Shown piece by piece: positions 5,843 to 29,471 of a stretch of 64,000 bases of DNA. Origin of the DNA: Prorocentrum cordatum (lineage: Eukaryota); assembly GCA_963575745.1 (NCBI GenBank), contig CAUYUJ010000217.1, forward strand, positions 1 to 64,000, in the 5' to 3' direction. A program made the translations under genes and the position numbers. Positions within the stretch are counted from its first letter, which is position 1. Each line of letters opens with the position of its first letter. The notes beneath the pieces were generated by a model. That model was not told the DNA's origin. It made no database searches and worked only from the letters and a program-made list of their open reading frames with translations.

Positions 5843-6991
5843 ATGGGCGATGCAGGCGGATACACATGGGATGGCGCGGGAGGGTGGTGGGATAGCCGCA
5901 GCAGCGGCTGGCGTGGCTGGGAGGACGGCCATGATTGGTCAGCGAGGGGTTGGAGAGACTGGCGACAAGACGGGCACACGCCAACGGAGGACGCCAAATG
6001 GCGCGATGGCCCTGCCGCCGCAGCAGCGGCGGCGGTCTCGCCTCAACGGCCGTCTCGCTTCGCCGCGCTTGGCGTTGTGAGCCCCCGCGCCCCTGGTCTC
6101 GGCATGCCCGAATTCGACAATTTCGTGAGGGCTGCCCTCCGAAACGTACCAGAACCTGGGAACACAGTTTCAGGAGAGGGGTCGGGATCCCGAGCCGCGC
6201 CTGCGGCGCAGGGGCCCCGCGCCACCGCAGCGGCGGCGGCGCGCGGGACCCAGGATTTTGAGAAGTTTGATTTTAATTATTTTTTGAGTTATGAAGAGAG
6301 GCTCGGCACTTCGTTTCAGCAACACAATCAAGCGTTGAAATGGTGGCGCCATCTGGATGAAGACCCAACTGCCCCGTTCGAGTCAGAAGCCAAGTGGTTT
6401 GACAATGCGGAGCCCACCATGGTCGCTGTTTGCGACCACGGTGCGAGGACGAGCTTTGGTTTCAAAAGCGACGAGGAAGTCCCTTGGCGGTGGCAAGAGA
6501 TGGTGGCGACGCTCAGGGGGGGAGATATCAGGGAGGTCGTGGAGGGGCCCCGCAGCAGCGGGGCTCTGATCGGCTGCCCCCTCGAAGTCCGGCCAAACAG
6601 CTACGACCACATGCGTCAGAGTATTGTGCGCGCGCGAAAGTTCGCGGGGCAGCGGGTGAAAGTGAAGCTGCCGATGTGGGATTTCGTGTTGCACCGCGAC
6701 GACGGGACAGGCGTCCGTTTACACCCGCACTGGGGCGACAGGAAGGCCGAAGCTCTGCCCCTCGTCCCCCACGCGGACACGGTGAGGCCACCAGCCGCGG
6801 GTTTGGGCGGGAGCGACGGGTCAGGAACTTTTCGCTGGTACAAGGACCTCGGCGTGGAGCGCAAGGTCAAGTTCGACGCCGCCAGAGAGAAGAAGGGGAG
6901 GCCGACGCCCTCTCAGGGGCCCCGCAGCAGCGGGGCCGCGGCGCCCAGCACCAGGCCCTCGGCGTCCGCAGCAGCGGGTGGCAAACAGTAG
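5843..6991 (+). CDS. Transposon cargo gene 1, unknown protein (~382 aa, Trp-rich N-terminus)
   Basis: Uninterrupted ORF from ATG 5843 after a pyrimidine-rich leader. Globular-looking core (QHNQALKWWR...WRWQEMVA...WDFVLHRDDGTGVRLHPHW). No family recognised. Confidence 0.65.
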   Translation: MGDAGGYTWDGAGGWWDSRSSGWRGWEDGHDWSARGWRDWRQDGHTPTEDAKWRDGPAAAAAAAVSPQRPSRFAALGVVSPRAPGLGMPEFDNFVRAALRNVPEPGNTVSGEGSGSRAAPAAQGPRATAAAAARGTQDFEKFDFNYFLSYEERLGTSFQQHNQALKWWRHLDEDPTAPFESEAKWFDNAEPTMVAVCDHGARTSFGFKSDEEVPWRWQEMVATLRGGDIREVVEGPRSSGALIGCPLEVRPNSYDHMRQSIVRARKFAGQRVKVKLPMWDFVLHRDDGTGVRLHPHWGDRKAEALPLVPHADTVRPPAAGLGGSDGSGTFRWYKDLGVERKVKFDAAREKKGRPTPSQGPRSSGAAAPSTRPSASAAAGGKQ

Positions 6992-9870
6992 TTTTGGGAC
7001 CGAATAACTCCCCAGACGATTTGGTTGCGGAGTAGATGGCTCCGCAGCAGCAGCGGGGCTCGAACGAAGGGCGCGTCGCATTTCGGCAGGGGCGCGCGCG
7101 TCGGCCGCCGAGATCGGGAGCGCGCGTGCAGGCGCCGTGGCGCGATCTTCGTTAAGAAGTCCCCCCTCTCCTCCCTGCCCCCCCATCCCGCCGCCCTCAA
7201 CGTCGGCTCCTCGCCGCCCGTTCCTCGTCGCTCCACGCCTGTTCGTTCTCCTCCAATTTCCTCTCCCGCTTCCTCGTTCTCTCCTTCCCATTTTTCCCTC
7301 CATCCCATTGCATCCCTGGCACCCCAGCGAAGTTCGCAGTTCGAAGTTTGAAGTTCGGAGTTCGAAGGTCGCAGTTTGAATTTCGAAGCTTCGCACTTCG
7401 AGGTTCGATCTTCGAACCTTCGTCATCTCGTCGTCGTAATCGTCGTCCTCGTTCGTCGTCGTCATTCCTCGTCGGCGTCGATTGTCGTTGTCGTCGTCGC
7501 TCGTTGTCGTCGTCGCCGTCGTCGTCGTGGTCGGCGTCGTCGTCGTCGGTCGTCGTCGTCGCTAGTCGTCGTCGCTGGTCGCCGTCGTGGTCATCGTCCT
7601 CGTCGTCGTCGTCGTGGTCGTCGTCGCCCTCGTTGTCGCCGTCGTGGTCATCGTCGTCGTCGTTGTCGTGAAACGCCCCACGTAGGAGGAGCAGAGAAGG
7701 GAGTAAGGAGAAATGAGCACGGTGGAGGGAGGAGGGAGGATTGAACAGGAAGAGGAGGGTGCAGATGGAGGTAGAAGGGATGAGGTAGTTCAGAAGTGGG
7801 AGCAGCAGACTGGCGCAATGGGAAAAGCCATGCGAGCGCAGGGAGGGATGGAAATGCGATAAAGTGAAGCCGCAGCCGTTGCAGGTCTGCCTCCCGCCGC
7901 GCCCGCCCGCCTCCGCGACGGAACCGCGCAGGGGCCTCTGCCGAAGTCTCCGCAGCAGCGGGGACTGCCAGAGGAGGCTCCTTCGCGGTTTTTGCGCCGC
8001 TATGGCGAGCATCGCGGGCAAGTACGACGCCGATGACTTCGAGCTCATCACGACGGAGGGCAGTGTTTGGCACTGGGCGACCATGGTGGTGCGGTTTCTC
8101 CAGTGGCGCAATCGTTGCCGCCATGCGCGCGCCGTCGGGGTGAAGGGCCAGATGCTCGTCGACCAGGCGCGGCAGATGATGGAGGAGGCGCGCCGCACCG
8201 AGGAGAAGGGCAAGATGATGCTTGTGATGTCGAAGAAGACGGCGAAGAACATCCCAGGCAATATTCGGTACTTTTGCCGCCAGCCGCACCAGGAGAGCTG
8301 AGCGGCGATCGGAGCTGGGCCGATAGAGGAGGATGAGGAGGAAGAGGAGGGGGGGTGAGGAGAGGAGGAGGGGGATGAGGAGTTGGAGGCAGCACGCGCA
8401 CCCGCACTAAGAGCCGCCAGCCGCGCCCGTCTCCGAGCATGAAACCCGAGCTTGGCTGGAAGGGGGGAGGGCGGCAGCAGAAACAGCGCAGGACAGGGAT
8501 GGGGGAGGTCACGCATCCGCCGCAGTAGTGGCGGTGGTACGGCAGTTCTCATGGCGGCGCGGCGGTCGCTGAGAAATGGAGCACGCGCGTGGGCCTGCGT
8601 GCGCTTAATTATGAGTGGCTCTCGCCCCCTCCCCTCCTCTTCCTCCATGAGATCTCTCTCCTGGTGCATATCCCCTGCCAGTGCTCGTCCTGCTCCTCTA
8701 TCCGCCCCCCCTCGTCCGTTCCTGCCACCAGCCACATGGGGCGTTCTCAATCAACACCCCATTGAGTGTCCCCATGTGAAGGTTGCCCTTGTCATGAGGG
8801 CGGACTCGCCAGAGCCGAGTGGCTGAAGAACTAGTAGTTTGGGGTCCGAACAGCTCCCCAGACGATTTGGTTGTGGAGTAGGTGGCGCCGCAGCAGCGGG
8901 GCTTGAATGAAGGGCGCGTTGCATTTCTGCAGGGGCGCGCGCGTCGGCCGCCGAGATCGGGGGCGCGCGCGCAGGCGCCGTGGCGCGATTTTCGTTTTGA
9001 AGTCTCCCCTCTCCTCCCTGTCCCCCCATCCCGCCGCCCTCAACGTCGGCTCCTCGCCGCCCGTTCCTCGTCGCTCCACGCCTGTTCGTTCTCCTCCAAC
9101 TTCCTCTCCCGCTTCCTCGCTTTTCCTTCCCATTTTCCCTCCATCCCAGTCCATCCCTGGCACCCCAGCGACGTTCGCAGTTAGAAGCTGGAAGTTCGGA
9201 GTTCGAAGATCGAAGTTTGAATTTCGAAGCTTCGCACTTCGAGGTTCGATCTTCGATCCTTCGTCATCTCGTCGTCGTAATCGTCGTCCTCGTTCGTCGT
9301 CGTCGTTCCTCGTCGGCGTCGGTTGTCGTCGTCGTCGTCGCTCGTTGTCGTCCTCGCCGTCGTCGTCGTGGTCGGCGTCGTCGTCGTCGATCGTCGTCGT
9401 CGCTAGTCGTCGTCGCTGGTAGCCGTCGTGGTCATCGTCCTCGTCGTCGTCGTCGTGGTCGTCGTTGCCCTCGTTGTCGCCGTCGTGGTCATCGTTCTCG
9501 TCGGCGTCGTCGTCGTCGTTGTCGTGAAACGCCCCACGTAGGAGGAGCAGAGAAGGGAGCAAGGAGAAATGAGCGCGGTGGAGGGAGGAGGGAGGACTGA
9601 ACAGGAAGAGGAGGGAGCAGGCAGAGGTAGAAGGGATGAGGTAGTTCAGAAGTGGGAGCAGCAGACTGGCGCAAGGGGAAAAGTCATTTGAGCGCAGGGA
9701 GGGATGGCATTGCGATAAAGTGAATCCGCAGCCGTTGCAGGTCTGCCCCCCGCCGCGCCCGCCCGCCTCCGCGACGGGAGCGGCCCGGGGCATGGAGCAG
9801 CCTGGCGCGACTGGAGCCGCGCAGGAACCTCTGCCGAAGTCTCCGCAGCAGCGGGGGCTGCCAGAGGAGG
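6989..9870 (+). repeat. Diverged direct duplication inside the element (~6989-7975 vs ~8836-9870), containing TTCGAA-rich and (TCG)n tracts
   Basis: Colinear sequence, e.g. TAGTTTTGGGACCGAATAACTCCCCAGACGATTTGG vs TAGTTTGGGGTCCGAACAGCTCCCCAGACGATTTGG. Confidence 0.9.
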
Positions 9871-12404
9871 CCCCTGATGCAGTTCCGCATGGAATGGCAG
9901 ATCCAGCACCGGCCCCCGCAGCAGCGGGGGGGGAGGTTGCAACGAAACTTCGGCCACTGCTTTCGTCGATGTCTGGTGCCCAGGAAAGCGCTTCGCAGAG
10001 CCTGCTGGTTGCTCAGGAAATGATGGAGAATGGCCGGATCGAAGAGGCGCGGAAGTTAACGGCCGCCGCCAACCGCCTTGCAGTCACAACGGCTAAGGAG
10101 GCGGCTTCCGCAGCAGCGGGGGCATCCGTGGAGCCAGGCGCCGCCGCAGTGGCAATCGAGCCTGGACAGAACGCCACCCGCTCCGATGACCCGAGACCGA
10201 GATCTCCCTGCACGACTAATTGGCGACAACGGCAGGCTCTGATCGCAGCACGCAAACTGCGTGAAAGCTCCTCCGCAGCAGCGGGGGCCCGCGTGATCAA
10301 GACTCTCGCCTTGACTTCGAGGGCTCGGTCGCCAGCGCTTCCTGTCCAAGAGGGCTTCCCAGAGGAAGGCCGCCCGCACTTCCCATCGGAAGAGCGCGGC
10401 CCGAGCCATTCCAAGCCTCTTGTGCCCCTGCTGTACGACGACGAAGACCAGGTGCAGGAGGGGCAGACAGAGGCGCGCGTGAATCTGGCCTTTGCTTCCC
10501 TCGTCCTGCGCGCGGGCGCCCCCCTGTCGGATTGGGTCGCAGCTGTCAGGGACAGGCGCGAAGGGGTCGCCTTAGTCTCCTTCGAGCCTGGCGCGCGCAT
10601 CAATCGCGATCGGCGGAAGCAACATCTCGACGATCTCATCCGCCAAAGTGGCTTCCACGGGGAGGTCGCGCGCGAGTGCGTCGGGGCTCTCCTCTGGGTT
10701 CCCGAGCGCGTCGAGCAGTGCGAGGTGCTTCGCTGGCACTGCCACGGGAAGTTCCTGGTTCAGGCCTGGTCGGTGACCCTGGCAGCGGTGGCTCACAATC
10801 CGAAAGCAAAGGAAGGCAAACTCTCCATAGCAGCGGGGGGCGTGTTCTTCCGACACCAGACGAGCCTCGCGGGACACCCGTGGCCCGAAAACTTCCGCAA
10901 CGGGCTGCGGAACTTGGCGTTGTGGCACCGAGTGCGTATTCTCGCTGGGATCTTCGACGCAGACAGGGAGGATCTTTCGGAGCTGCTCAGAAGTTGCGGC
11001 GCGTCTGGCACAGGCGTGCTCGGCTTGGCTTTGCGGCGTCCGACAAAAGGCTATCACGTGACGCGCCCGCGCGCGCTACATCGTGATTCTTGGCCCCGCT
11101 CAGGTTCGCGAGTGCCCTGCGGGCGGGCAGCCTGATCTGCCGCACTGGTTGAATCAGGTTTCCCAGCCTCCGCAGCAGCGGGGGCTCCTCACCAGCCTGC
11201 AGCACCGCCAGTTGGATTGGGCGGCGCGTCCGACCTGGGTCAGGCACACGGACGCGGAGCGCAAGGAGCAGGATACATATGACTGGCCGCACTTGCACAG
11301 GGTGATCCACAAGGCCCAGGATGCGAACCGCCTCACGGAACATTGCCACACATTGTTCGTTTTTATAGAAGCCAAGAACAGGAAGTCTGGCAAAGGCGCC
11401 GCGGCCAGGAAGAAGGATCGGAAGCGGGAAGCCAAGTGGGAAAACAGCGGGGAGAGTGGGCGGAGACAGAACCCGAAGCAACAGCCTCAGCAGCAGCGGA
11501 GGCGCACGGAGACCAGGAGGAGGCGGAGACAGAATCTGAAGCAGCAGCCTCCGCAGCAGCGGGGGCGCACGGAGCCCAGGAGGAGCTTGAGGGCGACGGG
11601 CGCGACGCCGTCGACCTCTGCAGCCCCGCGCCGCCCCAGGACGAACAGAGCAACCCTGACAGAGGTGAGAGGGAGGAGAAGAAGGAGAAGGAGAAGATGA
11701 AGAAAAACAAGAAGAAGAAGAATAACAAGAAGAAAGATATCAGGAGCAGAACCCCAAAGAGGACGAAGCCCTCGCAGCAGCGGGGGGGCAGCCGTTCCAC
11801 ACGCAGAAAGCGGGAGCAGAGGAGCAAAGACCGAATGAGGAGAGTGCCCTCGCAGCAGCGGGGGCGCAGCCGCTCCAGACGCAGAGGGCAGGGGCAGAGG
11901 GGGCGCAGCCGCTCCAGACGCAGTGGGCAGGTGGAGGGCGGCGACCGCAGGGCGGCGCGGGCAGGGCGGTTCCTGCCCACGCCGCCCGCGCACCCACCCC
12001 ACACAGGTCAGGTGATGCTGAGGCCGAGGGCATGGCGCCCGCTCCTCCCAGGCCAGATATGCCGTCCGCCAGGCATGCCGCCAATGATGCCACCACCACC
12101 GCCATCTCCCCCGCGTGGAGGAGGACGCCGCGGGCCCCCCCCGCTGGAGGAGACACCGCACCCTACGCCACCGCGGCTCGCCCCGAGCCAGCCGCCGCGC
12201 CCTCCGCCGAAGCGGCTCCTGCCAAGAGAGTCGCAGACGCCCCGCCCTCTGGCAGCGCCGCTCGCCCCGAGGCCGCCGCCGCAGCCTCCCCCGCCGCAGC
12301 TCCTCTCCAGGGAGTCGCCGCTTCCTGCGGACACGTTTGCGTTCAACAGTGACGCGTTCGAGGCATTGTCGCGGCGCCGCAGCCCTTCAAGCGACTCCAG
12401 CTGA
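9792..12404 (+). pseudogene. Cargo gene 2: frameshifted degenerate EEP-fold-like protein with an Arg/Ser/Pro-rich tail
   Basis: ORFs 9720-11135, 11083-11700 and 11343-12404 overlap in successive frames. RVRILAGIFD and HCHTLFVFI...RKS align in order with VDILCGDFN and AHYPLLFQM...RS of the EEP gene at 26551. Confidence 0.5.
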
Positions 12405-12649
12405 CGGCGCGCGGCTGCGGAGACCTCCGCAGCAGCGGGGGTGGTCTCCGCAGCAGCGGGGGTTATCATAAGAGATCTGAGGCGCGGGCTCGGCGCGCGC
12501 GCGCGCGAGGAGGCAGGCGCTCGCATTGAGCGGCTGAAGAAATCGTGGTCGTTGTCGTCGTGCTCGTCGTCGTCGTTTGCTTTTCGCTGGGGGGGAAAGG
12601 TGGACGAGCAAGAGGAGGAGGAGGAGGAGGAGGAGGAGGGGTCCTGCAG

Positions 12650-12885
12650 GGACCAGGACCGACACCGGGACCGGGACCGGGACCAGGGGGAGAGCGGGAC
12701 CGGGAGCGGGGGCGGGACAGGGACGGGGGGCCCAGGACGAGCAGCAGAACCGACCACGGGACCGGGACCGGGACCGGGGCCGGGGCCGGGACCGGGACCG
12801 GGACCGGGAACGGGGGTGCTGGTCCCGGTCCCGGTCCCGGTGTCGGTGCTGGTCCCGGTCCCGGGCTCCCGGTCCCGGCCCCGCT
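12650..12885. repeat. (GGGACC)n followed by inverted (GGTCCC)n hexamer arrays
   Basis: Direct reading; orientation switches near 12815. Confidence 0.85.
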
Positions 12886-12951
12886 CCATGTGTCAGTTCT
12901 TTGTCCCGCCCCCGATCTCTGCCGTGCCGTTTGGGTTCGAGATCGCCAGCC

Positions 12952-13434
12952 ATGAAGGTTAGGAAGCCTGGCGCAAGGATCGGGCGATGCCGCATCGGCG
13001 AGAAGAGGAATAGGAAACCCGACACAAGGACGGGACGATGCCGCGTCGGCGAGAAGAGGGCTTTTCGGAAACCGGATCACAGACCTCATTCGAGCAAACG
13101 CGCTGGGGCTGCGGCTCGACCCACGGCAGCGTCGGCGAAGGCGGCCGCGCGGCCGCTAGCTCGGCGCAAGGCGAGCTCCAAGAAAGAAACCCTCGCAGTA
13201 GCGGGGGCTGCTGTAGCCCTCGCAGCAGCGGGGGCTGCTGTCTTGGAGCGTGGTGGGTTGTGGGATGAGAAGACTGCTCGGAGGACAGGTTTGGAAGATG
13301 ACGATCCATTCGATCAGGCACTTTGGTACCGCGACCATTGGGGCAACTGGTACAAACTAGGGTCCGAGATGCGCCGACCCCCTTCGCAAGTAATTACGGG
13401 GCGGATGAACACGACAGTGCCCCCACATGGTTGA
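12952..13434 (+). CDS. Cargo gene 3: small basic protein (~160 aa)
   Basis: ATG in GCCAGCCATG context. K/R-rich N-terminus with duplicated RKPxxRxGRCRxGEKR, then a hydrophobic stretch and WYRDHWGNWY. Confidence 0.45.
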   Translation: MKVRKPGARIGRCRIGEKRNRKPDTRTGRCRVGEKRAFRKPDHRPHSSKRAGAAARPTAASAKAAARPLARRKASSKKETLAVAGAAVALAAAGAAVLERGGLWDEKTARRTGLEDDDPFDQALWYRDHWGNWYKLGSEMRRPPSQVITGRMNTTVPPHG

Positions 13435-13893
13435 TTGTACGGTCCTCAGGATGACCACGACATCCCGAGCGCACAAGGGGAACGCCCCTCCGCAGCAGCG
13501 GAGGGATGTCGCGAGAATTTCGCCGAGGGGGGGTGACCTCGGCGGAGGGGCGCACTCGCGCGCGCGCGGGGGAGCGCGGTTTCGCGCGTCGCGTGCGGCA
13601 TCGCATGCGGTGTGGGGGAAAACACGACATCTGTGCTGTCACCTGTGTCCTGCTCTCTCCTTTGCTTCGCTTCCCCTTGCACTCCCTCCTGCAACCTCCC
13701 GCCCGTCATTATGTCTTTGTAGTGATCATCGCTTCCATACACGCAACTCTCACAGCGCCCCTTCTCTCACAGATGGGTTCGGGGTGGGCAACCTTTCTCT
13801 CGCACAGGGGGGGGCCGATGTATCAATGCTTCTCCTGTTCAGGCGGATGTGCGCGCATCGAAAAACTGAGAAGGCCGCGTCGACCCGCCGTTC

Positions 13894-14110
<217 letters not shown>

Positions 14111-14277
14111 CTCCTTTGCTCAAGTGCGGGCAGGCCGCGGATCCGTGAGGCCCCTCCTTCTGTCCGCGCGCGCGACAGGCACTCGCGCTTCAAGCGGGGC
14201 TCCGCAGCAGCGGGGGCAACCGTCGCGGAGCATCTGTTTTGGAAGCTGCCCCCGCAGCAGCGGGGGCGCCTGGATAG

Positions 14278-16747
14278 ATGTCCGAGGACATCAAGTCAGG
14301 CCCCCTGAATGATGCCGCCACGTTGCGCAGCCGCTATGCCTTGAAGGACTCCGAGGGCCAGCGGTTGAAGGCCAAAATTTCCTTGGAGGATATCTGCGTC
14401 CACCCGCAGAACAGAGGTGGGACGTGCCCCTCCGCTGCCAGAGTGGTTAATCTCCTGTGTGGCATTCTGAAAGACAGGTTCCTCTTGAACGAGGCGCAGC
14501 ACGAAGCAGTGGTTGTTCAGGAACTCCCTGCGGGGAAGAAGGCCGATTACGAGCGCCTCCATGGCAGGCCGTACACGGCGCACGCGGACCGCAACTTGCA
14601 GAAAACGGAGTCCGTGGAGGCTCTACGCTCGGCGTACACAAGCTTGTCAACGTTCAACTACGGGGCGCTGAGCCACTGCACCCTAACCCTTGGTCTGCTG
14701 AGCCTCAAGCACGGCGCAGTGTGGGTCATTCCCGAAGACCACAAAGGATGTGGTTTGGAGGAGTTCCAGACAGGTACAGGTGGCTCCTGGGATATCCCAA
14801 AAATGCGTCGCGCACCGAAGTTCACAGAACTCATGGACGTGCTCGATAACGGTTTGCTTTGCGAGGTGCTCTCGTGGGAAATTCACTTCGATGCCGTCTT
14901 CGCGCAAGGCCCCGCGATCATTTCCGCGGCCCTGAACGACCCACAGGGAAAAGGTGTGACCTCTCACGAAATCGAGGTCCTGACGTCCGTCGCTGATTTC
15001 GTCGCCACCGCAGCAGCGGCGGGCAAGAAAGCATCGCGCGGATCTGAGACAGGACACCCCGTGAATATCTCGTACGACACTGTTCTCAAGGCTTGCGCGC
15101 AACGACATCCCGAGTACGCCAAGGCCAAATGGTTCGAGGACATGTTTACTTTCGTCATCAACGTGGGGGCCGCATCAGGGCAGCTCATACCGCAAATTCT
15201 AGATTATGATCGACGTTGGGTGGATCACAAAATACGTTCCCTGGCACCAGCCACCTGGGGCGTTCTCAACCAACTCCCCATAGATTGTCCCCATGTGAAG
15301 GTAGCCCTTGTCATGAGGGCGTACTCGCAAGAGCCGAGGTGCGGACAATGCCCCGCGCCGGAAACGGCTTGGGGACACAGCGAGGGCAACAGTCGGATAC
15401 AGGAGCTCAATTCTTTGTGCCCCCGCAGCAGCGGAGGCCCACGGGGAGGAGAAGAGCGCGATTTTGACCGCGGGGGCGGTTCTGACTGCGACGGACACCT
15501 TCTACCAGGCGTACGTAAGGGCGAAGGCTAACAAACCTCGTCTGGAGGCAGTTGCGGAGGCCGTGTGCGAGACAGTGCGTCCGTACTATGCTGAAGTACG
15601 CGAGGCCTGGCAGAAGATGGAAAAGAACGCACAGAAAGAGTTCCCGCTCCCTCCTGCGCCGTGGACCGACCAGTTGCCCGCGGCCCCCGAGAAACCCGCC
15701 GGCCCTCGCAGCGGCGGAGGTGGCGAGGGCTCTCGCCCGCAGCCAGTATTGATAGAGTTCAACGAAGAAGACAAGCCTCTGAATAGGCAGATGTCTGAAG
15801 TGTCCAAGCCCGTGAACAGCCTGATGGTGGTCCCAGTGAAATCGTGGCACGCTTCGGCTCCGTCTGGCAATCTCGACACAGACAGGCGGCACCAAGCAAG
15901 CATCGCGGAAGTCATGACTGGCTTCCATCGTCACGCGGACACTTGCGCCCAACCCGTCCAGATGCAATATGACGTTCAAGCCAAGAGTGTCCATGTGGTG
16001 GCTACTGGGGACATCGCCGAGGGGAAACTGATGCTCTTCCCTTGCTGCCCCACCGCGAAGATGTTCCCGAAAGTCTCGAGCAATCCGCGGGCAGTGGAGG
16101 TGCTAGTCGGTGAGAAACGTCCGACTCCTGTCGAGAAAATGGAAACATATTGGGCACAACCTGATTTCAAATTACCAGAGCTGGAGCTCAAGCCCGCGCC
16201 GCAGGAAGCGGCCTCCGCAGCAGCGGGGGCTGCGCAGGGCGAGGCGCCCGTGGGTCCGCAGCTCGACGAGGCGGCCCCCGCAGCAGCGGCGCCTGCACAG
16301 GGCGAGGCCGAACAGGAAGAGAATCCGTACCAGTTTAAGTTCGGAGGTACCGAGTCCTTGCACTTCTTTTGGGGAGTTGAGAGGATGACACCAGAAGAAC
16401 TTGCCCGAGCCCAGCTAGTGCAGGGACAGGAGCACTGGAAGTTCAACGTTGCACTTCAACCGCACGAGTTCCAGACAATGACAAAGTGCCAGCCAGCCGC
16501 CCCCCTCCGCGTCTGCAGCGTGCTTGTCCCGTGCATGCACAACGCGGTGCCGCTGGCGCGCGGAGATCGGCTGATGCTGCAGATCACAAAGGAGAAGAGG
16601 GCCACCGACACCCAAAAGGAGAAGCAGGCATGGCAAAAGGAGCAGAAAGAGCAGGAGAAGAAACGGAAGAAGGACGCCGAGGAGGGACGGAACACCCCCA
16701 AGAGCGGCAAGATGACAATCCCTGGCCAGGGGGCCCACTTCGTGTGA
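14278..16747 (+). pseudogene. Cargo gene 4: ParB/Srx-like N-terminal domain and SET-like C-terminal motifs; one frameshift near 15410-15430
   Basis: ISLEDICVHPQNRGG...NLLCGILKDRF...AVVVQE resembles a ParB N-domain. VVATGDIAEGKLMLF and MHNAVPLARGDRLML resemble the two SET-domain 'A..dI..G' strands. ORFs 14278-15531 and 15464-16747 overlap. Confidence 0.6.
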
Positions 16748-17301: not shown

Positions 17302-17516
17302 GAACCCCTCTGTGACAGAGGGGCTCCGCGCTTTTCCGCCCGAGCCCCTCTGTGACAGAGGGGCTCCGCGCTTTTCCGCCCGAGCCCCTCTGTGACAGAG
17401 GGGCTCCGCGCCCACCCCCCCTCTGTGACAGAGGGGCTCGGGCGGAAAAGCGCGGAGCCCCTCTGTCACAGAGGGGCTCGGGCGGAAAAACGCGGAGCCC
17501 CTCTGTCACAGAGGGG
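17302..17516. repeat. Mirror-symmetric array of six CCCCTCTGT(G/C)ACAGAGGGG sites in 40-bp units
   Basis: Site centres at 17314, 17354, 17394 | 17427, 17467, 17507. The spacer CCGCGCTTTTCCGCCC flips to GGGCGGAAAAGCGCGG across ~17410. Confidence 0.9.
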
Positions 17517-18833: not shown

Positions 18834-19106
18834 TGCCCTCGTTATCCGCTCGCTGGCGCGCGCCGCAGCAGCGGCGCGCTGACCGCTACAACGGCTTTTT
18901 TTGTGCAAACAGACTCGGTGCATGCACCGCGCCAGCGGCGCGCTGACCGCTGAGGTGGATGCCTGCGGGTTCCTGTCGACTGGACAGGGGTTAGGGCACG
19001 CGCGGGGGATCGCGAGCCTGCGGCTCTCCAGCGCTCGCGCGCTAGAGGACAAAAGGAACTCGCGGAATCTGGCGAGGACGGGGCGGAGGGGTTGGGAGCA
19101 GTAGGA

Positions 19107-19139
<33 letters not shown>

Positions 19140-19199
19140 AAGGAGGAGCAACAGCAGCAGCAACAGCACACTAGCAGCACCGACAGGAGGACCATTGCG

Positions 19200-20275: not shown

Positions 20276-21172
20276 TCTCGCTCCGTGCGGTCGTCTTGGG
20301 CGGCGTCGGGCCTCCGCTGACTGATTACATGATGCATATATGTATATATTGTGTATGTATGGTGTGTCGACGTATATGTATGTACATACGTATATGTGTG
20401 TATTTATATATATATATATATGTATGTATATATAACACGGTCGCAGGGGCGTGGCCCGCGGCCCAGGGCGGGGCCCGAGACTCTGGGACAGGACATAGGG
20501 CCTCATCATCGCAGGATGCTCATCATTCCCATCATCGCCATGATGGGGGGGGGAGGAGGGGACAGCTACCAGCTGCGCGCTGGCGCCACCGCCGCTCCCT
20601 CGCGCCCGCTGGCGCATCCGCAGTGCGGCTGCGGGAGGGGCTGCGCCTCAATTCCTGCAGAGGCGGCCTGCAGGAATGTTGCACTTTTGGCGTCTAGTAC
20701 AAACGCCCGAGCGGCCCGCTTTTTTTTGGGGGGGGGCTCTTGCTTCACGGTGGAAGAGGAGACTATCATCATCCCCCGTGCCGCGTTCGCCTTCCCTCGA
20801 CGACGATGTCGACGACTTCCTACATTCTGGCCTTGTTTTCTGGGGAGTGTTCTCGGAGTCGTTCGGGGCGTTCGTTCGTGTGTGCATGCTTCTGAGTTTT
20901 CTGCGCGTCGTTCGGGCCGCTCGCCCTGGTGTGAGTCGTTCGGGCCCCTCCTCACCAGCCCATCTCACAGCAGCAACCCTCGCGAAGCATGCCGACGGTC
21001 GTGTTTTTTTTCAGGCGTGTGTCCGCTGGTCCCCGCATATCTCCCTTGTTCCTCGTTCCTCCCGCCCCCTTGTACATCCTCCTTGTGGGGGGATGCGGCC
21101 GTTTGCTTGCCCTGCAGCGCTGGGCTCGAGACCAGAGGGCGGCCGCGCGTGCGCGCGCATGGCTTCGGCATC

Positions 21173-24100
21173 ATGGCAGCCGCAGCCGCTCCGCCTCCAG
21201 ACCCAGGAGACGCTCGCCCTGCAAACGCGCCTCTGCGAGTCGGGCACGACCGCGAGGCCAACGAATTTGTGGAGTTTTGGTACCAAGAAGGCAAAAAGAA
21301 AGACCCCGACAGAGTGCTCATGAACCCACGGAAACTAAAGGGGACAATATTCGGATTCGGGTACGTTATGCGCCGCAGCAGCGGCGCGGCTTGCCATTAT
21401 GACTCTGGCAGACGCATATGTAAGAAGATTCATTTCTCCTCGCAGTGGCCGTGTCCCAGCGACCATCGTCTGGCGGACGGTTCCGTGGACTGCAATAAGT
21501 GGTCAGACTTGCAAGCGCCCTGGCATTTAGTGCAATGCGCGGGCGGGTGGCCCGCAGGAGCGGGAGCCCCCGCAGCAGCGGAGGCGCCGGCCGAGGCGTG
21601 CGAGGCCCCTGCTGAAGCGGCAGCGGAGCCGTCGGTGGGCCCTGCTGAAGGCCCCGCAGCAGCGGGGCCGTCAGCGGAGGCGTGCGTGGCCCCTGCTGAA
21701 GTGGCAGCGGAGCCGCATGTGGGCTCTTCTGACGGCCCCGCAGCAGCGGGTGCGTCAGCGGAAGCGTGCGCGCCTCCTCCTGAAGTGGCGGCGGCGCCGT
21801 GCGCGTGCCCTTCTGCAGAGCCCGCAACAGCGGAGGCGTCCGTAGGTCCTGCTGGCGCGCATGGCGCCGACGCAATCGCCGAGGCCGCTTCCGCAGTGGA
21901 GTCTGCCCTGAAGGACTCCGCGGCAACAGCAGCTCTCTCAGCAAAGGAGGTTGCCCCTGTCGCTTTCCCCCAACCCGCCCCGCTTGCTGTTCGCGACATA
22001 GCGGAACCCGTGCTTCCAGGGGCGGAAGTTGCTGCAGTGACCGCCTGTGAACAGACAGCCGCGACAGCAGGCGCTGCGGTTGCCCCTGCAGGCGCCCCCG
22101 CAGCAGCGGGGGCGCCTGCAGGGGCACTTTCAGAACAAGGCCAGAGGTGCTTCGAGAAATTGATGAAGTTGTCGCGCAGTATTCGCGGAAGGCCGGGGGG
22201 AGGCCGAGAGTGGATAGGGTATTCTGCTTTCGTAATCTTTGCGCTTCTGCGGAAGGTGCGCGTCTACGTGTGGGAAGGACGCAACAGAGTCGACCTTTGC
22301 AAAGCTGTCTTGCCGCCGTGGAAACTAGAGGAGTTAACCCGCGAGCCTGCGGTGGACGCGATCGCGCGTTGCGCCGTCCCCCGAGAATCGGGGCCACCGG
22401 ACTGGGCCCCCGTGTCGGAGGAGTATCCTTTGTTTCTATGCAATCATTTTATCGCAGGCGTCTCCACCGACTTTGTGGATTTCACGGGAGATGCTTCGAC
22501 GGTGGACGGTTTCTATTCGGCTCTCGGTGTGTTCGTCGTGTCCACAGTCGCAGACGGGGACTGCGGTTTGGATTGCATGTTGCAGATGACCCAGGAGGTT
22601 TCCACGCGAGAGTCTCGCAGGGAGCTCCGCCAGGACAGTTGCTCTCTCCGACCACCCTGATCCTTCGCTTCCATCTCTGCTGCCCCCACATGCTCTTCCC
22701 CTCCTTGTCTCCCCATTTTGCCTTCATGCCTCTCCCATCCCGCCCTTCTCTCCCCTCGCGCCCTCCCCACCGAGTCCCCTTGCCCCTCCTCCATGCCCGC
22801 CCGCCAGGACATCGCGGACTACATCGTGCAAAGGGTGCGTCTGGCGCGGCTCCTCGACGCGATGGTCCTGACACAAGAAGTCACGCAGGATGACGTCCAG
22901 GAGCTTCGTCGCCTGCAGAGCGCCTTAGACGACGAAGAACTTGCCCCGCAGCCTGGCCACGCCGCCCCTCCGAGAGCACAGGGCGTTGCCGCCGCAGCAG
23001 CGGCGGCGCCACCTGAGGACTTGGCAGTGGTGGAAGTCGACGCCGAGGCTGTCTGTCAGGAGCTCGCGCAAGCCATCCAATGGTGGACAGGACTGACAGA
23101 CGCTGCGCGCGCCCTGGACGTAGCTCGGGAGTTGATGCCCGCAGAGCGGGAGGAGCAGCTCTTGAGGTACAGGAACCGCGGCTGAGAGCGCAAAGCCCCC
23201 GCCCAGAACAAGAAGCGCGTGGCGGTCCCGTCGCTCCTGTGCTCGAGGATGGAGATAGCGGGTGCTTTCGACGAGCACATGCGCTCTTTAGGCTGGACGC
23301 CTGGAGACCGCTTTCCGTATGGAGGGGCGCGTTCATTCATGGATGCGTGGGACTGGGGTTCCATGTCCCGTCTCCCTCTCAGGAAGCGCACGCGCGTTGT
23401 GCGGCGCTGGCACAAGGCTTTTCTGTCGTCGAAATACGCCTCCGCAGTAGCGGAGGCTGTTCGGCAGCCGCGGGGACACGAGAAGCAGCACGGGCAGGGG
23501 CGCCTCCTGAAGTGGAAAGGGCGGAAAAGGATACCACAACAGGGACAGGGCCCAGCTCGAAAATGCCCTTGGCTGCGGCAAGCTCTGTTTGAATGGTGGA
23601 GTTCCATTCGGCACAGTGTGGATTGGAAGATGATCAAAAGTGGACTGCGAAGTACCCAAAGAGAGCCAGCGAAGATAGCAAGGTTCACGCAAAGCATGCT
23701 CCAGACCAAAGCGTTGGAGCTCATGAGCGAGTACGTCACGCAGCAGCTGCGGATCGGGCAGCGACCCGCCGCCGTGGAGTTGAGGTCGCGCTGGTGGGCC
23801 TCCTGGCGCAAGGAATACGGCCTCAGCATGCGGTACCCGAACAGGAAGTACAAGTGCCCGCTGCCCGTCTTGGAAGAGCGCCTCGAGCGAGGCTGGCTGA
23901 ACGTGTTTAGGGCGCGCGCCGCGTGCGTGCTACTCAACGAGCAGGATCCCGAGATGGAGAACTTCGACCAGTCGCCTTTCCACCACAATGAAACAGGACC
24001 AGCTGGCGTGAGGACCCTCGCAGTAGCGGGGGTCGAAGTGCCACTGGTGGAGTGCCACGGCGCGGTGCGGGAGCGGTGGACGGCCAATTTCATGACAATG

Positions 24101-25846
24101 AGCGACAAGGATCGACTGCGGAGAGAAGGCCCCCCACCGATGGAGTGCATGTTCAAGGCGGAGGGGGGAGGAGAGAAGTTGAGGCCGCGCCTGCTCGAAC
24201 ACCTTCGGCGCCGAGGGTTCGGCAGATGGGTGTCGGCGACCACCAGCACCAAGGGGTCTTACCGGACACCGTGCGTGCTCGCGTACCTGGACCGCCACCT
24301 CCCTCATCTGCCAGAGCCTCCGCAGCAGCGGGAGTGGAGAATTATGATGGCGGATGATCATGGCCCTCACTTGTCCCCGCTTGTGAGTAAGCTATGTTGG
24401 TCTCGAGGGTACGTGTTCATCCCGCACGGGGGCGGCGTAGCCCCAATCCTCCAAACTGTGGACACACATCTGAATCAACACGCCAAGCGCGAGCACATGA
24501 AGAGAGAAGGAGCCGCGCTGCTGAGAGCCATGAGGCTGGGCCAGTGCGTCCCACAGCTGGACAAGTCAGAATGCATTGACTTGATGGTGGAAGTGATGTC
24601 CCAAATGAGTCTTCACTTGGCTGCGGCAGACGGGTACTGGGAAACTGGTTTCAAGGCAAATCTGTGGGATGCGGACTTGGACGCGCGCATATGCAAGGAG
24701 GCAGGCCATTTCTGGAGAAAGTTGGGGATGCGTGAGAAGGTCGCCGCCGCAGTAGCGGAGGTCGAAGAAGAGGTACAGGCGGGGCGCTTGAGATGGACTT
24801 ACAAAGACATCATGCGATTGGTCCTCCCGCACCCTCGACGCGGCCACTGCGACGACGTGTTCGCAAACCTTGGAGACGACACGGCTCTGGACGAGGGCGA
24901 CAAGATTTGGCATGGCATGGAGGGGGCGGAAGACGCAGCCGAGGGTCTCCGCAGCAGCGGGGGCACTGAGGGTGGCAATTCCGTCGACGCCCTCGAAGGA
25001 GATGAAGATGATGGGAGCGAGGGCGACGACGGGTGGAGCGCCGCTGGCGAGTTTGACTACGAATGGGCCAATCAAAGTCTCACCGCAGCAGCGGCGGGGG
25101 AGAGCGCGCTGGAGGCACCGCCTGGCCTGTCGACGTCTCGTATGGAAACTGCGGAGCAGACGTCTGAATTGATGAGAACGCATTCGTCGATCGCTGAGGA
25201 GTTGCGCAGCTGGGGCGACATCGCGGGGGCCACGTTCATGGAGACGCAATTACGGAAAGAACGGAGGCGAGTGCGTGAAGTGTCGAAGGAAGATCCTGGG
25301 GTTCAGCGAGCCCTCGCAGCATACGAGGACGCCCGCGAGGCGACGCTCAGAAACGAGAAACGACAGCGGGATGTCGAGGCGCGGCGCAGAGAAGAGCTAA
25401 CCCGCCTGGGGGACGACGTAAAGAAAGCGCGCAAGCTGCTGAGGACACAGCAAGCCAAACTCTTAGACGCAGAGGCAGCCATAGATATCAAACACAGGAT
25501 GAAGCATGTCGGGTTATCCGAGCTGGGCGCGGGCCTTCGCAGCTGCGGAGGCGCGGCGGGTCGAACGTCGAGGTGCGACGCGCTGAATCGCCTTGCGATT
25601 TTGGGTTCTGGGCTTTCTGCAGCTCAGCGGTCAGATTTTGACTGGTTTCGGCGGGAATGGGGCGCCGCTGGCACGGAGGACTTCGGTGGAAAGTGGCCGG
25701 AGACGTTTGCCACATGGTTGCAGAACGTCATAGACGAGTACTTGGGGGGCAACCCGAGAGCATTCAGCATGTTTGTGCACAGTGAGACGCGACGCCGTCT
25801 GTCTGGTTCCCTGGCGCTTGCGCTCCCTGCAGCTGGGGGCCTCTGA
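21173..25846 (+). pseudogene. OTU-like protease fused to a pogo-family DD35D transposase (~1500 codons; exons 21173-22633 and 22808-25846; one in-frame TGA at 23183)
   Basis: Triad NFDQ (D at 23966), MADDHGPH (D at 24353) and FIPHGGGVAPILQTVD (D at 24461), with 35 residues between D2 and D3. OTU-like VADGDCGLDC (Cys at 22562). ORFs 20351, 22718 and 23219 share one frame. Confidence 0.8.
22634..22807 (+). other. Predicted GA-AG intron (174 nt)
   Basis: Pyrimidine-rich, contains an in-frame stop, flanked by direct repeat CCGCCAGGACA. Removal gives RRELRQ|DIADYI, the helix expected after an OTU Cys motif. Confidence 0.7.
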
Positions 25847-26129
25847 GAGGCGCGGCCCGCCGCAGCAGCGGCGAGGCGCGGGGTGTGAGTTCGGGCAGCA
25901 GCCACTGCTCTTCCACCTGCCTGCGACTGAGGCGCCGCGTGCGCGCGCGGACGTAGCGCAGGCCTTGCGCAGAAGAAACAGGGAGGAGGGGGGACGGGGG
26001 AGGAGGTGAGAGGAGGGGGAGAGCAGGCAGGGGGAGAAAACCACGCGGGTGTCGATCACTCCGCCCCTCCTCCTGCTCTCCCCCCTCCTTCTCCCTGATC
26101 TCTCCTGGTCATTATATCATTCCTCTCTC

Positions 26130-26423
<294 letters not shown>

Positions 26424-26550
26424 CGCCCTTTCCTTCCCTATCCGCCCCGTCTTCCTCCTCTTCGCCCCGCCCCCCTCCTTCCACCGCCGTTTCGGCCCCA
26501 GGAGTTCGGCTCTGACGGCCGCCCCCCCTGCAACGCGGGGGCAGGGAGCG

Positions 26551-29160
26551 ATGGCCGCGGCCACCAGCAGCAGCAGCAGCCCATTGGGCCCCGCAGCAGC
26601 GGGGCCTCGGGGCCGACTGACGGCAGTGTTCACAGCGAAATCTGGGAAGGTTTGGCGACCTGTAGGTGGTCAGGCAGAACCCTGGAAGGGTCCTTGGGCC
26701 CTTGTGCCAGAGGGCACCCCCGCAGCAGCGGGGGCTGCGCCGCCTGGCGTTTCAAGCTCAGCAGCGGCGGCGCGATCAGAAGTTTCTACGATACGCACCC
26801 GCCCAGGCGACTCCGTGGTGGATCCGAGCGATGACGAAGAGCCTCAGGAATTTAGGGGCTGCAGGCCGCCCAACGACGTCGAGCGGCGCGAATGCCGTCT
26901 TCGCGACACCGCCCCGCCAAAGTTCTTCTGCGAAAGAAGAGCGGCTGACGTGAACAGGCCACGGAACGACAACGTGGGCAACCTTTCCGTCCTGTTCGGG
27001 AACTGGGGCCCCATGCCGAGCGAGACCAACCACGCGGACCAGCGGCGGAGACTTGAGTTGCAGCTGCGGCATTGCCCTGCTCTCGTGGCGTGCTTTGCGG
27101 AATGTGAGGAGCAGATGGAGTCAATCCTACAGCGGCCAGGGAGACCACCGCCGCTGCAGGCGGACGCCCCCGCAGCAGCGGGGGCGTCAGCAGCGGAGGG
27201 CCAAAGCAGCAGCAGCGGTGGGCCTTTTGTCGCCCCCGCAGCAGCGATGGCGACAGCAAGAGGAAGTCGTGCTGCGAGTGTTGGCGATTGCCAACAGCTC
27301 CAGAATCGACCAGAGTACGAATACTTGACCCTGCGCGGGCGTGAGGACAAGTCCTTGTGCATCGCTGCGCGCGCAAATCTGTGTTACGAAATGCGGCTGC
27401 TCCACTGGGAAAGGAGTGTCGACGGCCACTACAGAACAGCAAAGGGCGCAAGATGGAAGCGTTCTCGAGGATCATGGTGGTTGAGATCTACTTCGATCAA
27501 ACCTACGCCCACTTCGGCTCGAAAGTGCGGGCGCGCGCGGTGCACCTCCACCGCGACACGGCGAAACATTCCAGAGGCTTCAACGAGGCTCACAAGACGT
27601 GGTGGCCGAGGTTGGCGACCATCTTGCAGGACAACAGCGTTGACATCCTTTGTGGGGATTTCAACGTGGCGCTCACACAGACGCTGCCGAGTCTTCGGGG
27701 TCTAGGCATGCGATTGGAGACGGCAGCAGCGTACTTCTGGCGCGGATTGGACGGCACTCCGTGCTTGGACAGCTGCGGCATCTTCGTTCTCAACAGGCCT
27801 GGCGAGTACACCCTGTGCTGGCCGCTGAGCGCCGTGCGCGACAGAGACGAGACGGGGTTGCTCTTCGCACGCAAGTCGGTGATCGGTGAGATCGGGTACC
27901 GTAACAGAAGCAAGGCAGAGGCCCCCGCAGCAGCGGGGGCCTCCACCAGCCCATCATCGCAGCCGGCGCACTGGCACCACAGCCAGAACGGAGGCCCTGG
28001 GATGCCTTACTCTTGCTACTACCCGAAAAAAGACGCCCGCGAGCACCTCCAGGATTTACTGACTCAGTCAGAGGAATGCCAACGCAAGATCCAAGAGAAG
28101 GAGGGTGAGAAACTGAGGCGCGCCGAGGCTGAGGCTAGAGGGGACCACCGCTTCTCTAGTAATCGCGAGGTGACCCTCTTCCGCGCGTTGCAGAAGACGT
28201 TCCCGCCAGAGACCGTGGAGGTGGAGGGGCGCTGGCACGGCGGCGCCCACTACCCTCTCCTGTTCCAAATGCGCATGGCCAGCGTGCGTTCGCAGGGGAG
28301 GAAGCAGGAGAGAGCCAAAGAGAAGAAGGACAGGCGCGCCCAGAAACAGCTGGCAGCTGCGCTCAGGGCGCCGCTGCCGCCCGAGCAGCACGGACCCGAG
28401 CGCCAGGCACCAGAGCAGCACAGCGAGAGGGGCGAGCAAGACGAGCGCGCCCAACAGGCGTGGCGCCCACCAAGATGGGCAGACGAAAGCGCGGACGACG
28501 GCCGCGACATGCCCGCGGCTGGCGATGGAAGGTCGCGGCGGGGGGTTGAAAGGGGGAGGGGGGGAGAGGGGCGGTGGAGCACGGGGAGGGCAGGAGGGAG
28601 GAGAGGGAATGAGGAATAGGCTGAGCAGGACGAGGGATGACATAAGGAAATGAGTGTCGGAAAGGGGCGGGAGTTGACAGGGAGGGGATAATTATAGAAA
28701 TAATTATTTATCACCCCCAAGGTGGCAGCCGACCCCGCAGTGCCCATCTCCAGGGCCTGCGCCGCTGGAGCAGCGAGGGCAGCGCGGCGCCGCCAGCTAC
28801 ATCTCGCGCGCGATCGCTGCCCTCGGCCACGAGCCGCCAGAGCCCCCGCAGCAGCGGAGGCCACAGACGCCACGGCAGCAACCAACAGACGGGGAGTGGC
28901 GCAGGGATGAGTGGTGGCGCACCAAGGAGGGCGAGGAGCGCGAGTGGCAACAGCCGAGCGGCGAGGCTTCCTCGCTGCAGGACCGCATGGTCGACTCCGC
29001 CTGGCGCGACATGCAAGTTGCATTCGGCAGCGACCAACGCCCCAGTGACTGGTGGAGCAGCCACAGTGGGTGGAGTAGCGGCCAGGGGCACTGGGAGGTC
29101 GCGACTTGGAGGTGGGTCGAACACCCCCCCGAAACCAATCCCTGGGAAAAACTTAGCTGA
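26551..29160 (+). pseudogene. Cargo gene 6: exonuclease-endonuclease-phosphatase (EEP/APE-like) domain protein; frameshift near 27445; exons 26551-28531 and 28722-29160
   Basis: Ordered EEP motifs LSVLFGNWG, LVACFAE, AVHLH, DILCGDFN, LDSCGIFV and GAHYPL. The second exon is open to TGA at 29158-29160 and is Trp-rich. Confidence 0.7.
28532..28721 (+). other. Predicted GT-AG intron (190 nt)
   Basis: AAG|GT at both junctions; purine-rich then AT-rich interior; phase-2 splice joins to a 146-codon open frame. Confidence 0.65.
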
Positions 29161-29471
29161 ACCATCGCACAGGAGCCGCCCCTCCGCAGCAGCGGAGGGA
29201 AACCTCATCGGCCGAACGTCGACCCTCCGCAGCAGCGGAGGCCTTGCCAATGCATCGTGAGCGGCGGCGACTCGCGCGCGCCGTCGTGCTCGGCGACCGC
29301 TGCCCGAGCGGAGAACGAAAAAGAAACGGTGCTTTCATCGGCGCTGTCGTTGCCTCCTCTCCTTCATCGTTTTCTTCTCCCTCCTCCTCCAATCCCCCAT
29401 CCCGCTATCACATTTTATCGTCTCCAATCGTATCGGGAGCTCCCGTGGCAGAAGAGCACCCATAACGAGGT

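Follow-up and report, generated by a model that had tools for sequence, protein, structure and literature searches.

The nearest described counterpart in design to the feature reported here is the set of dispersed packaging signals in the RNA of single-stranded RNA viruses and of hepatitis B virus (PMC6281560, PMC5699041, PMC5431903): tens of stem-loops on one strand, in coding and non-coding sequence, with a short common loop motif and variable, co-varying stems. We analysed a 64,000-nt stretch of the Prorocentrum cordatum genome (NCBI GenBank assembly GCA_963575745.1, contig CAUYUJ010000217.1, positions 1 to 64,000 of the forward strand; the whole stretch is called the window below), which holds a giant transposon-like DNA element carrying about 60 copies of a short hairpin, a copy number of the same order. 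The hairpin had been noticed earlier by a model working from the letters without database searches (the sequence-only reading), which took it for a strand-polarised self tag that might serve coating by protein, packaging, priming, nicking or an escape from silencing. The carrier differs from the viruses in being a chromosomal cut-and-paste DNA transposon with mariner-like ends and not an RNA genome; no coat protein is recognisable in it and no full-length single-stranded molecule is known for it. The stems and closing pairs found here are also far more uniform than those of the viral signals, which are degenerate.

Transcript hairpins of the Mimiviridae are likewise element-specific, lie on the sense strand of every gene and are read by an enzyme of the same origin (PMC4402537). 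They stand at transcript 3' ends, one per gene, and are not known to share a loop, whereas the hairpins described here are mostly intragenic, several per gene, with a fixed loop and clamp. Chi and KOPS are likewise short, over-represented motifs of strict strand polarity, and repetitive extragenic palindromic (REP) elements share the hairpin shape; these and uptake sequences are features of whole bacterial chromosomes, either intergenic or tied to replication, recombination or uptake, in contrast to a hairpin restricted to one eukaryotic mobile element and lying mostly in genes. The A-repeat of Xist consists of 7-9 tandem copies in one non-coding block, whereas about 60 copies are dispersed here over 23 kb within open reading frames (ORFs). 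It is likewise a small conserved hairpin with a fixed tetraloop, repeated on a long RNA so that one protein is recruited many times over (PMC5689009). Our literature search found no description of such hairpins in cut-and-paste transposons, with most subscription journals lying outside the search, so that absence from print is unproven.

The exact decamer CGCAGCAGCG occurs 52 times in the window, first at 5897 and last at 29237, always on the plus strand, compared with an expected count of 0.44 and a maximum of 3 in 100 dinucleotide-preserving shuffles of the window. Its reverse complement was absent from the window, as were forward copies outside 5897-29237. Four further sites read CGCAGTAGCG, all within the element, and no copy of CGCTGCTGCG was present in the 64 kb. 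Under a wider definition of the hairpin (CGC-AG[C/T]N-GCG) the element holds 59 forward sites (52 AGCA, 4 AGTA, 2 AGCG and 1 AGCT loop), in agreement with the hand count of 55-60 in the sequence-only reading. Two reverse matches were also found in the element, one of them the palindromic AGCT loop counted a second time, leaving one true reverse site. The comparison of inside with outside was made within the window, where the 39.7 kb beyond the element contained three forward sites of the wider definition (two AGCC, one AGCG) and none with an AGCA or AGTA loop. The single orientation that had been claimed is therefore seen in all 52 exact copies and in 59 forward sites against one true reverse, and the claim that none lies outside the terminal inverted repeats holds for the AGCA and AGTA loops, with three sites of other loops in the flanks. 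Counted in this way the hairpin is strand-polarised and, within the window, confined to the element; its absence from the flanking DNA is consistent with an element-marking role. Among the stems quoted by the sequence-only reading, those at 6014, 13486, 18261 and 23438 are exact and the 11-bp stem placed at 27162 begins at 27163. A scan of the window against Rfam returned no family at the gathering score, and a search for tRNAs in the window found none. A 15-nt fragment of a spliced leader matched once, with two mismatches, which is no more than chance would give.

Nineteen related loci (72 kb) were recovered by way of the transposase encoded in the element, 17 of them metagenome contigs and two contigs in bacterial genome bins. 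When these loci were oriented by their transposase gene, the family-wide motif CCGC-AG[C/T]N-GCGG occurred 190 times forward and five times in reverse, three of the five being palindromic AGCT loops, and the hairpin was present on the gene strand in all 19. Across the relatives the clamp CCGC/GCGG and the first two loop bases, AG, do not vary, and each lineage has its own typical third and fourth loop bases. AGCA is the loop of the window and of its 81% relative; L004 and L012 have AGTT (17 of 19 in L012), L007 has AGTG alongside other loops, and the most distant lineages, at about 51% G+C, have AGTC (15 of 15 in L013). Most lineages are dominated by one loop, as the window is by AGCA (52 of 59), and such dominance is what a co-evolving reader would be expected to produce. 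Two of the eukaryote-type transposase relatives, L018 and L019, carry hairpins on short contigs assigned to Kiritimatiellae and Weeksellaceae bins; this bacterial placement is most likely binning contamination. A search of viral contigs for a DNA pattern of two hairpins returned only 24-bp tandem repeats and one isolated pair, on two unrelated contigs. The tandem repeats, which contain CCGCAGTCGCGG or CGCAGTGGCG and had been listed as L021 and L022 (one viral contig), were rejected as relatives. The 12-mer CCGCAGTCGCGG also turns up in a polycomb review, where it belongs to a DNA probe from the fly, and this was set aside as coincidence.

Comparison with the related locus L001 (~85% DNA identity) showed that the positions of the hairpins are conserved between copies, with 14 of the 15 aligned sites kept. 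The 10-nt cores were identical at 149 of 150 nucleotides (99.3%) compared with 84.8% elsewhere, and a double compensatory change from G-C to A-T separates window position 22993 from L001 position 3327. The hairpins were also mapped onto the transposase protein alignment, where homologous sites could be followed down to 34% protein identity. Alignment site 156 is shared by 11 loci, sites 342 and 522 by 10 each, and sites 279 and 632-635 by seven each. At least eight hairpins lie inside the homology-validated transposase reading frame, several per gene, and within this one gene all three frames are used (AVA, PQQR, RSS/RSC), as the sequence-only reading had claimed more generally.

The encoded peptide follows the loop. 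At site 156 it is LRSSG where the loop is AGTA, LRSGG with AGTG and RRSRG with AGTC, and in L004 the frame in which the hairpin at this site is translated differs. All 10 loci with a hairpin at site 522 use the codons GCA GTN GCG there; N matches the commonest fourth loop base of the lineage in five of the eight distinct loci (one tie). Of the four AGTA loops in the window, three fall on Val codons that are conserved in relatives, and AGCA in their place would alter the residue. Purifying selection here preserves the nucleotides and overrides protein sequence. Protein sequence does not explain the motif, because the sites remain homologous to such low identity and the peptide changes to fit the loop; a functionless palindrome is very unlikely, because sites and cores are conserved at the nucleotide level and the loop dictates the peptide.

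The window consensus is an 8-bp stem, GCC(Y)CCGC-AGCA-GCGG(G)GGC, in which the fifth pair is C-G at 20 sites, T-G at 17, G-C at seven and T-A at five. The mean stem is 5.49 bp in Watson-Crick pairs and about 7.5 bp with G-U pairs, and the longest (Table 1) has a length reached by one of the 71 listed matches to GC-AG[C/T]A-GC in the window. Shuffling the arms among sites of the window reduced the mean Watson-Crick stem to 4.57 bp, with none of 1000 shuffles reaching the real value, so stem complementarity exceeds that of shuffled controls. Real stems also exceeded within-locus arm shuffles in L001, L003, L004, L005, L007 and L012. For covariation, 145 hairpins from the window and five relatives were placed in a gap-free alignment of a 10-bp helix, in which 78.5% of cells were paired compared with 65.8% after partner shuffling. 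The covariation score of 0.346 (0.149 when shuffled) was reached by none of 500 shuffles and lay above every slid register, in line with the earlier claim that stems co-vary around a fixed loop. The fifth pair of this alignment was G-C in 38 hairpins, C-G in 32, U-G in 22 and U-A in 18; C-G, U-G and U-A are tolerated in the stem and C-A is rare. Stem base pairing is under selection. All 145 aligned hairpins have A and G at the first two loop positions, these sites having been chosen with AG in the search pattern, and loop positions 3-4 vary among CA, TA, TT, TG, TC, CC and CT. The core contains two CpGs and is palindromic except at its centre.

The strands differ in how much they gain from G-U pairing. 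In the window, allowing it lengthened the mean stem by 2.0 bp on the sense strand and by 0.6 bp on the antisense strand; in L001 the respective gains were 2.7 bp and 0.0 bp. Mean RNA folding energies of the hairpin 28-mers were -16.8 kcal/mol for the sense strand and -15.6 kcal/mol for the antisense strand, with random 28-mers of the element at -4.7 kcal/mol. The energy asymmetry between sense and antisense is real but modest. Overall the hairpin observation is real, statistically overwhelming and ancient, and the view that it is a nucleic-acid-level signal for which protein coding offers no explanation is borne out by polarity, covariation, core conservation and loop-dependent peptides.

The claim that hairpins are written through the whole element needs correction, as their spread is uneven: the ends (5275-5896 and 29247-29595) and several stretches of about 0.9-1.2 kb are free of them. 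The inverted ends and the subterminal repeats contain no hairpin, nor do the 1.1-kb spacer with the palindromic array and the microsatellite spacer 3' of the transposase gene. An internal segmental duplication of a spacer module (6984-7921 and 8829-9777, 92%) carries one hairpin near the start of the module, intact in copy 2 at 8889 and present in copy 1 as a CAG-expanded remnant, CCGCAGCAGCAGCGG, at about 7040-7044. Several ORF starts have a hairpin 24-75 nt away. Mean spacing ranges from 200 to 530 nt depending on lineage. Regular spacing was rejected, since the coefficient of variation is 0.5-0.9, slightly more even than random and aperiodic. This pattern fits a placement in gene bodies that are transcribed and in the sequence next to them.

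The carrier is a giant mariner-superfamily transposon that holds several orphan cargo genes besides a conserved accessory nuclease, a classification based on its inverted ends, the Mos1-like fold of its transposase, three invariant Asp residues and a syntenic gene of the endonuclease/exonuclease/phosphatase (EEP) fold. An AlphaFold2 model of the transposase (P0001; pLDDT 73.9) matched the Mos1 catalytic domain over residues 220-515 (Z 12.8, rmsd 3.2, 187 of 201 residues), followed by SETMAR (Z 12.5) and Sleeping Beauty (Z 10.9), with retroviral integrases at 8.7 or less; a Foldseek search with the model gave weak matches (best E 7e-3). D261, D391 and D426 are invariant across 32 transposase sequences at spacings of 129 and 34 residues. 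In the modelled fold D261 ends strand 256-262, D391 comes just past strand 385-389 and D426 begins helix 424-450, and the three would form a DDD catalytic triad with mariner-like DD34D spacing. The element resembles Tc1/mariner transposons in this fold and Asp spacing and in its short perfect ends with TA tips. It differs in length and content (24.3 kb and at least eight ORFs compared with ~1.3-2.4 kb and one ORF), in the fusion of the transposase to an OTU-like N-terminal part and a 230-residue helical tail, in the conserved EEP-fold nuclease gene beside the transposase, and in the lack of any Pfam family match for the transposase. The predicted structure of a homologue of this downstream gene matched CNOT6L, TDP2 and LINE-1 endonuclease (E 1e-7 to 4e-6), confirming by folding a weak lead from a protein atlas (Exo_endo_phos, 0.85-0.87).

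We propose that the hairpins would act in cis as stem-loops in the sense transcripts of the element and be read by a dedicated, probably element-encoded protein, a proposal to which we give about an even chance. The core would be the 4-bp CCGC/GCGG clamp closing an AG[C/U]N tetraloop, extended in GC-rich lineages to about 8 bp with G-U pairs included, and it would form a family-specific tag recurring at intervals of 200-500 nt through coding and adjacent untranslated sequence. A protein specific for both sequence and shape would read it, the candidates being the Cys/His-rich N-terminus of the transposase, its helical C-terminus and the conserved EEP-fold nuclease. Possible outcomes are the stabilisation, export or translation of messages, their shielding from host RNA surveillance or silencing, and the gathering of the RNA into a particle. 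An RNA stem-loop is best supported because the sense strand is the structured one, the hairpins are placed in gene bodies, loop and clamp are conserved, the outer stem is conserved only in its pairing, and no single-stranded DNA stage is expected. Cut-and-paste transposition of the mariner type is not known to pass through a single-stranded DNA intermediate, and RNA is therefore the obvious single strand. The lineage-typical loops, together with the absence of the motif from flanking host DNA, suggest an element-encoded reader, which is most probable because the reader would have co-evolved with the loop. That RNA and not DNA is the strand read, that a protein is the reader, and which protein it may be, are inferred.

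Several results weigh against this proposal. In the AT-richer AGTC lineages (L008, L009, L013, L016, L018, L019) arm shuffles show that stems beyond the fixed 4 bp do not exceed chance, and there the motif could equally be a fixed 12-mer site in duplex DNA. Only 31 of 59 sites are more stable on the sense strand, whose energy advantage over antisense is small (1.3 kcal/mol; Wilcoxon p 0.025). DNA energy parameters favour the sense strand as well (-9.76 compared with -9.00 kcal/mol, p 5e-5), and G-T is the least bad mismatch in DNA. The coding stretches 10275-11172 and 22100-22994 lack a hairpin for about 0.9 kb each. Uniform loops within a lineage could arise by gene conversion among copies, without a reader. 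Pfam and PDB sequence searches found no RNA-binding domain in any ORF of the element. None of the 24 public runs listed with the element is recorded as RNA, and two runs guessed to be RNA of a sample that contains a carrier gave nothing on 14200-26100, a result uninformative on expression. Finally, polarity relative to the DNA of the element is equally compatible with the data, and the polarity of genes and of element are inseparable because the recognisable genes run parallel to the hairpins in all 20 sequences.

A wider statement, that an ancient and widespread family of giant mariner-like transposons in aquatic protists would write a CCGC-AGYN-GCGG code into every message, to be read by a co-evolving element protein for recognition of self RNA or for packaging, is put forward tentatively, and we think it rather more probably wrong than right. 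Its two branches are alternatives. Either element RNA would be told from host RNA, for protection or for privileged export or translation, or a long sense copy would be gathered into a particle through some 60 dispersed signals, in which case a cut-and-paste transposon would have a virus-like stage.

The main competitor to an RNA stem-loop is a sense-strand DNA hairpin read by the transposase or the EEP-fold nuclease, which we consider unlikely while granting it a real minority chance. The strand concerned would be the non-template strand in transcription, the strand displaced in replication or repair, or an unrecognised single-stranded intermediate, and the hairpins would be used in nicking, priming, post-excision repair or the compaction of a very long transposon. 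Uniform polarity across 23 kb suits a strand-specific DNA process, the preference of DNA energy parameters for the sense strand points the same way, and the nuclease in the family core has near folds that include the DNA enzymes TDP2 and LINE-1 endonuclease. Mariner-type enzymes, however, cut and paste duplex DNA, and the ends and subterminal repeats, where the chemistry of transposition takes place, have no hairpin. The presence of one hairpin per duplicated spacer module would not be predicted by a DNA process acting on the whole element, and extruding stems of 4-8 bp from duplex DNA would be energetically unfavourable.

It is improbable that the motif is a near-palindromic 12-bp duplex site, CCGC-AGYN-GCGG, bound by a dimeric protein of element or host that coats, insulates or condenses the element. 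Internal protein-binding sites are known in other transposons, the core with its two CpGs is palindromic except at the centre, and the AGTC lineages have just such a fixed 12-mer with no stem extension above chance. Recognition of this kind needs conserved half-sites, yet the arms vary and co-vary, as at the fifth pair, and the tolerance of C-G, U-G and U-A with C-A rare is a rule of base pairing and not of duplex recognition. The 190:5 bias in orientation is likewise not required of a near-symmetric site.

Processing by an RNase III-type enzyme through AGNN tetraloops, for self-limitation or small-RNA production, has in our view a slim chance. AG is the part of the loop that does not vary, with two variable bases after it, and one stem reaches 21 bp. 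Yeast Rnt1p cuts ~14-16 bp from the loop, whereas the mean stems here, 5.5 bp or 7.5 bp with G-U pairs, fall short of this distance. Cleavage within every coding sequence would also destroy the messages, Pfam found no RNase III domain among the element ORFs, and recognition of AGNN is not known outside enzymes of the budding-yeast type; the host here is no budding yeast. AGNN loops are given as Rnt1p determinants in a review of RNase III (PMC8708148). Substrates of Rnt1p and the hairpins follow the same loop rule of A, G and two free positions on a G+C stem.

Less probable again is a selfish or mutational by-product, in which functionless mini-palindromes were spread by insertion, template switching or gene conversion. 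Small mobile palindromes within coding sequence occur in Rickettsia and organelle genomes, uniform loops per lineage could reflect conversion, and the CAG-expanded variant of the spacer module shows that altered copies exist. The hairpins are nevertheless kept at homologous positions over deep divergence, including 14 of 15 sites at 85% DNA identity, with cores at 99.3% against 84.8% in their surroundings. They occur in one orientation only, the probable nested repeat at 20552-21345 has acquired none, and the 52 cores have all stayed exact in a copy that has suffered a nonsense mutation as well as a frameshift. Mobile mini-palindromes such as Rickettsia palindromic elements and organelle GC clusters were rejected as a model for the same reasons, since the pattern of insertion in either orientation is not seen (14 of 15 sites in place, 190:5). 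The notion that the motif merely encodes recurrent peptides (PAAAG, PQQRG, RSSG) has practically no chance of being right: several sites do match conserved residues, such as AVAE at P0001 residue 522, but one gene uses three frames, untranslated sequence also holds conserved sites, the peptide shifts with the lineage loop, the frame shifts at the same place in L004 and synonymous positions are fixed (GCA GTN GCG, site 522, 10 loci), so that loop-dependent peptides and frames and a conserved untranslated site refute it.

The coordinates of the element and its features are collected in Table 1.

Table 1. Features of the hairpin-bearing element, in window coordinates.
Feature	Position	Strand	Remarks
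Transposon-like DNA element (carrier), 24,321 bp	5275..29595	+	Perfect 30-bp inverted ends; recognisable genes all +
Hairpin field, 59 sites of CGC-AG[C/T]N-GCG	5897..29246	+	Mean spacing 402 nt
Longest hairpin, 21-bp perfect stem around AGCA	22081..22126	+	Within transposase exon 1
Hairpin core, non-coding	25861..25870	+	15 nt past transposase stop codon; kept in L001
Left terminal inverted repeat, 30 bp	5275..5304		blastn against 29595-29566, 30/30 identical
Right terminal inverted repeat, 30 bp	29566..29595		Same blastn, 30/30
Left subterminal repeats	5305..5420		Three full and one degenerate ~31-bp unit around near-palindrome CCCTCTGTGACAGAGGGG
Right subterminal repeats	29467..29555		Near-palindrome CCCTCTGTGACAGAGGGG
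Internal inverted array	17300..17520		Near-palindrome CCCTCTGTGACAGAGGGG, three copies then three inverted; in 1.1-kb hairpin-free gap
High-depth segment	20552..21345		~25x contig depth of rest of element in two runs; no hairpin
First ORF, 382 aa, no known family	5843..6991	+	First hairpin 55 nt past ATG
Cargo ORFs, 417 and 476 aa, no known family	14278..16747	+	
Transposase exon 1, OTU-like part	21173..22632	+	Cys/His-rich N-terminal motif, Ala/Pro-rich linker, motif DGDCGLDCML
Transposase intron	22633..22807	+	Placed by comparison with homologues
Transposase exon 2	22808..25846	+	Mos1-like catalytic core and long helical C-terminus
Downstream gene, EEP fold	26551..28619	+	Synteny with L012 and L007

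All long plausible ORFs of the element are on the plus strand. Genes on the minus strand were rejected, as the two long minus-strand ORFs translate to low-complexity sequence. A Pfam search of the element ORFs returned no family even at E up to 5, and PDB sequence searches gave no match for P0001 at E up to 1 or for four cargo ORFs below E 0.5. The [YF]xDD motif of reverse transcriptases is absent from all six frames of the element, and neither Pfam nor PDB sequence searches gave a capsid family for the ORFs tested. The 417-aa cargo ORF has 11 homologues, and a protein atlas offered DUF6589 (0.77) for the ORF at 14278 as a weak lead only.

More than 185 homologues of the transposase were found in metagenomes and other assemblies, and the longer ones join a part with the N-terminal OTU-like motif to the C-terminal transposase part. 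The motif DGDCGLDCML of exon 1, which we take to be OTU-protease-like, had no match in Pfam. A 10-nt direct repeat, CGCCAGGACA, stands at both borders of the intron, so that in-frame splicing leaves only the non-canonical borders GA..AG or GT..CA. A tblastn search of a phage collection with P0001 gave no match, and no relatives of the transposase were found in viral contigs. Exon 2 is interrupted in frame by TGA at 23183-23185 (Cys in a 97%-identical homologue), and the EEP-fold gene is split, relative to L012, by a frameshift near 27445; this copy is decayed and probably no longer autonomous.

The dinucleotide TA stands at both tips of the element (5275-5276 and 29594-29595) and may be either a target duplication or part of the repeat, the two being inseparable because TA is palindromic. 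Just inside each tip stand three or four copies of the near-palindrome. The internal array of near-palindromes could be a fused pair of ends, an internal transposase binding site or an origin-like structure. Contigs of two public runs cover the element at 90-100% identity, with thousands of pieces in one and 130 in the other, so that at least two sequenced sources contain it as a multi-copy family. Depth over the high-depth segment was ~10,000 compared with ~400 around it in one run and ~150 compared with ~6 in the other, and the segment is probably a nested, separate high-copy repeat. In runs X2 and X8, differences between copies over 14200-26100 of the window were mostly C>T and G>A (72 of 148 listed change kinds in X2), an excess that fits deamination of methylated CpG or a similar bias.

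A 391-bp inverted repeat (89% identity, 1424-1814 and 35228-35616) flanks a 34-kb region containing the element; its arms may be a pair of copies of some other repeat, or they may mark the limits of a larger and older structure. It was rejected as the true ends of the element, and the immediate flanks of the 30-bp repeats are linked by low-complexity similarity only. Low-complexity tracts, pyrimidine-rich on the left and purine-rich on the right, flank the element, and long trinucleotide and (CT)n microsatellites lie inside or beside it at 301-1200, 13886-14110, 26120-26420 and 33000-33600. Short AT islands resembling TTAATTA, in sequences that are GC-rich elsewhere, were seen near gene borders in the window (8605, 13391, 19470 and 28688-28711) and at the ends of L001, L002, L004, L013, L016 and L017; the family may use them as signals for starting or ending transcription. 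Outside the element, a fatty-acid desaturase domain at 45546-47363 on the plus strand (E 3.6e-13) was the only Pfam match of the window above the curated cut-off and presumably belongs to a host gene.

We regard the hairpins as a kind of feature that is new among eukaryotic DNA transposons. If the proposed stem-loop is correct, a eukaryotic DNA transposon would have superimposed a cis-acting structural code on all its genes, kept by selection strong enough to reshape proteins, with a loop that diverges from lineage to lineage in the manner of lock and key; on the wider and more doubtful statement, a nucleic-acid code would have dictated amino acids throughout the existence of the family. The stem-loop, if correct, would raise the questions of how very large transposons manage their transcripts or DNA, how self RNA might be labelled against host surveillance, and whether a transposon may have a packaged stage. 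In practical terms, the small and very stable hairpin and its proposed reader make a pair amenable to a direct binding assay, and the 12-nt signature finds members of an unannotated family that is abundant in aquatic metagenomes and some copies of which are mis-binned as bacterial.

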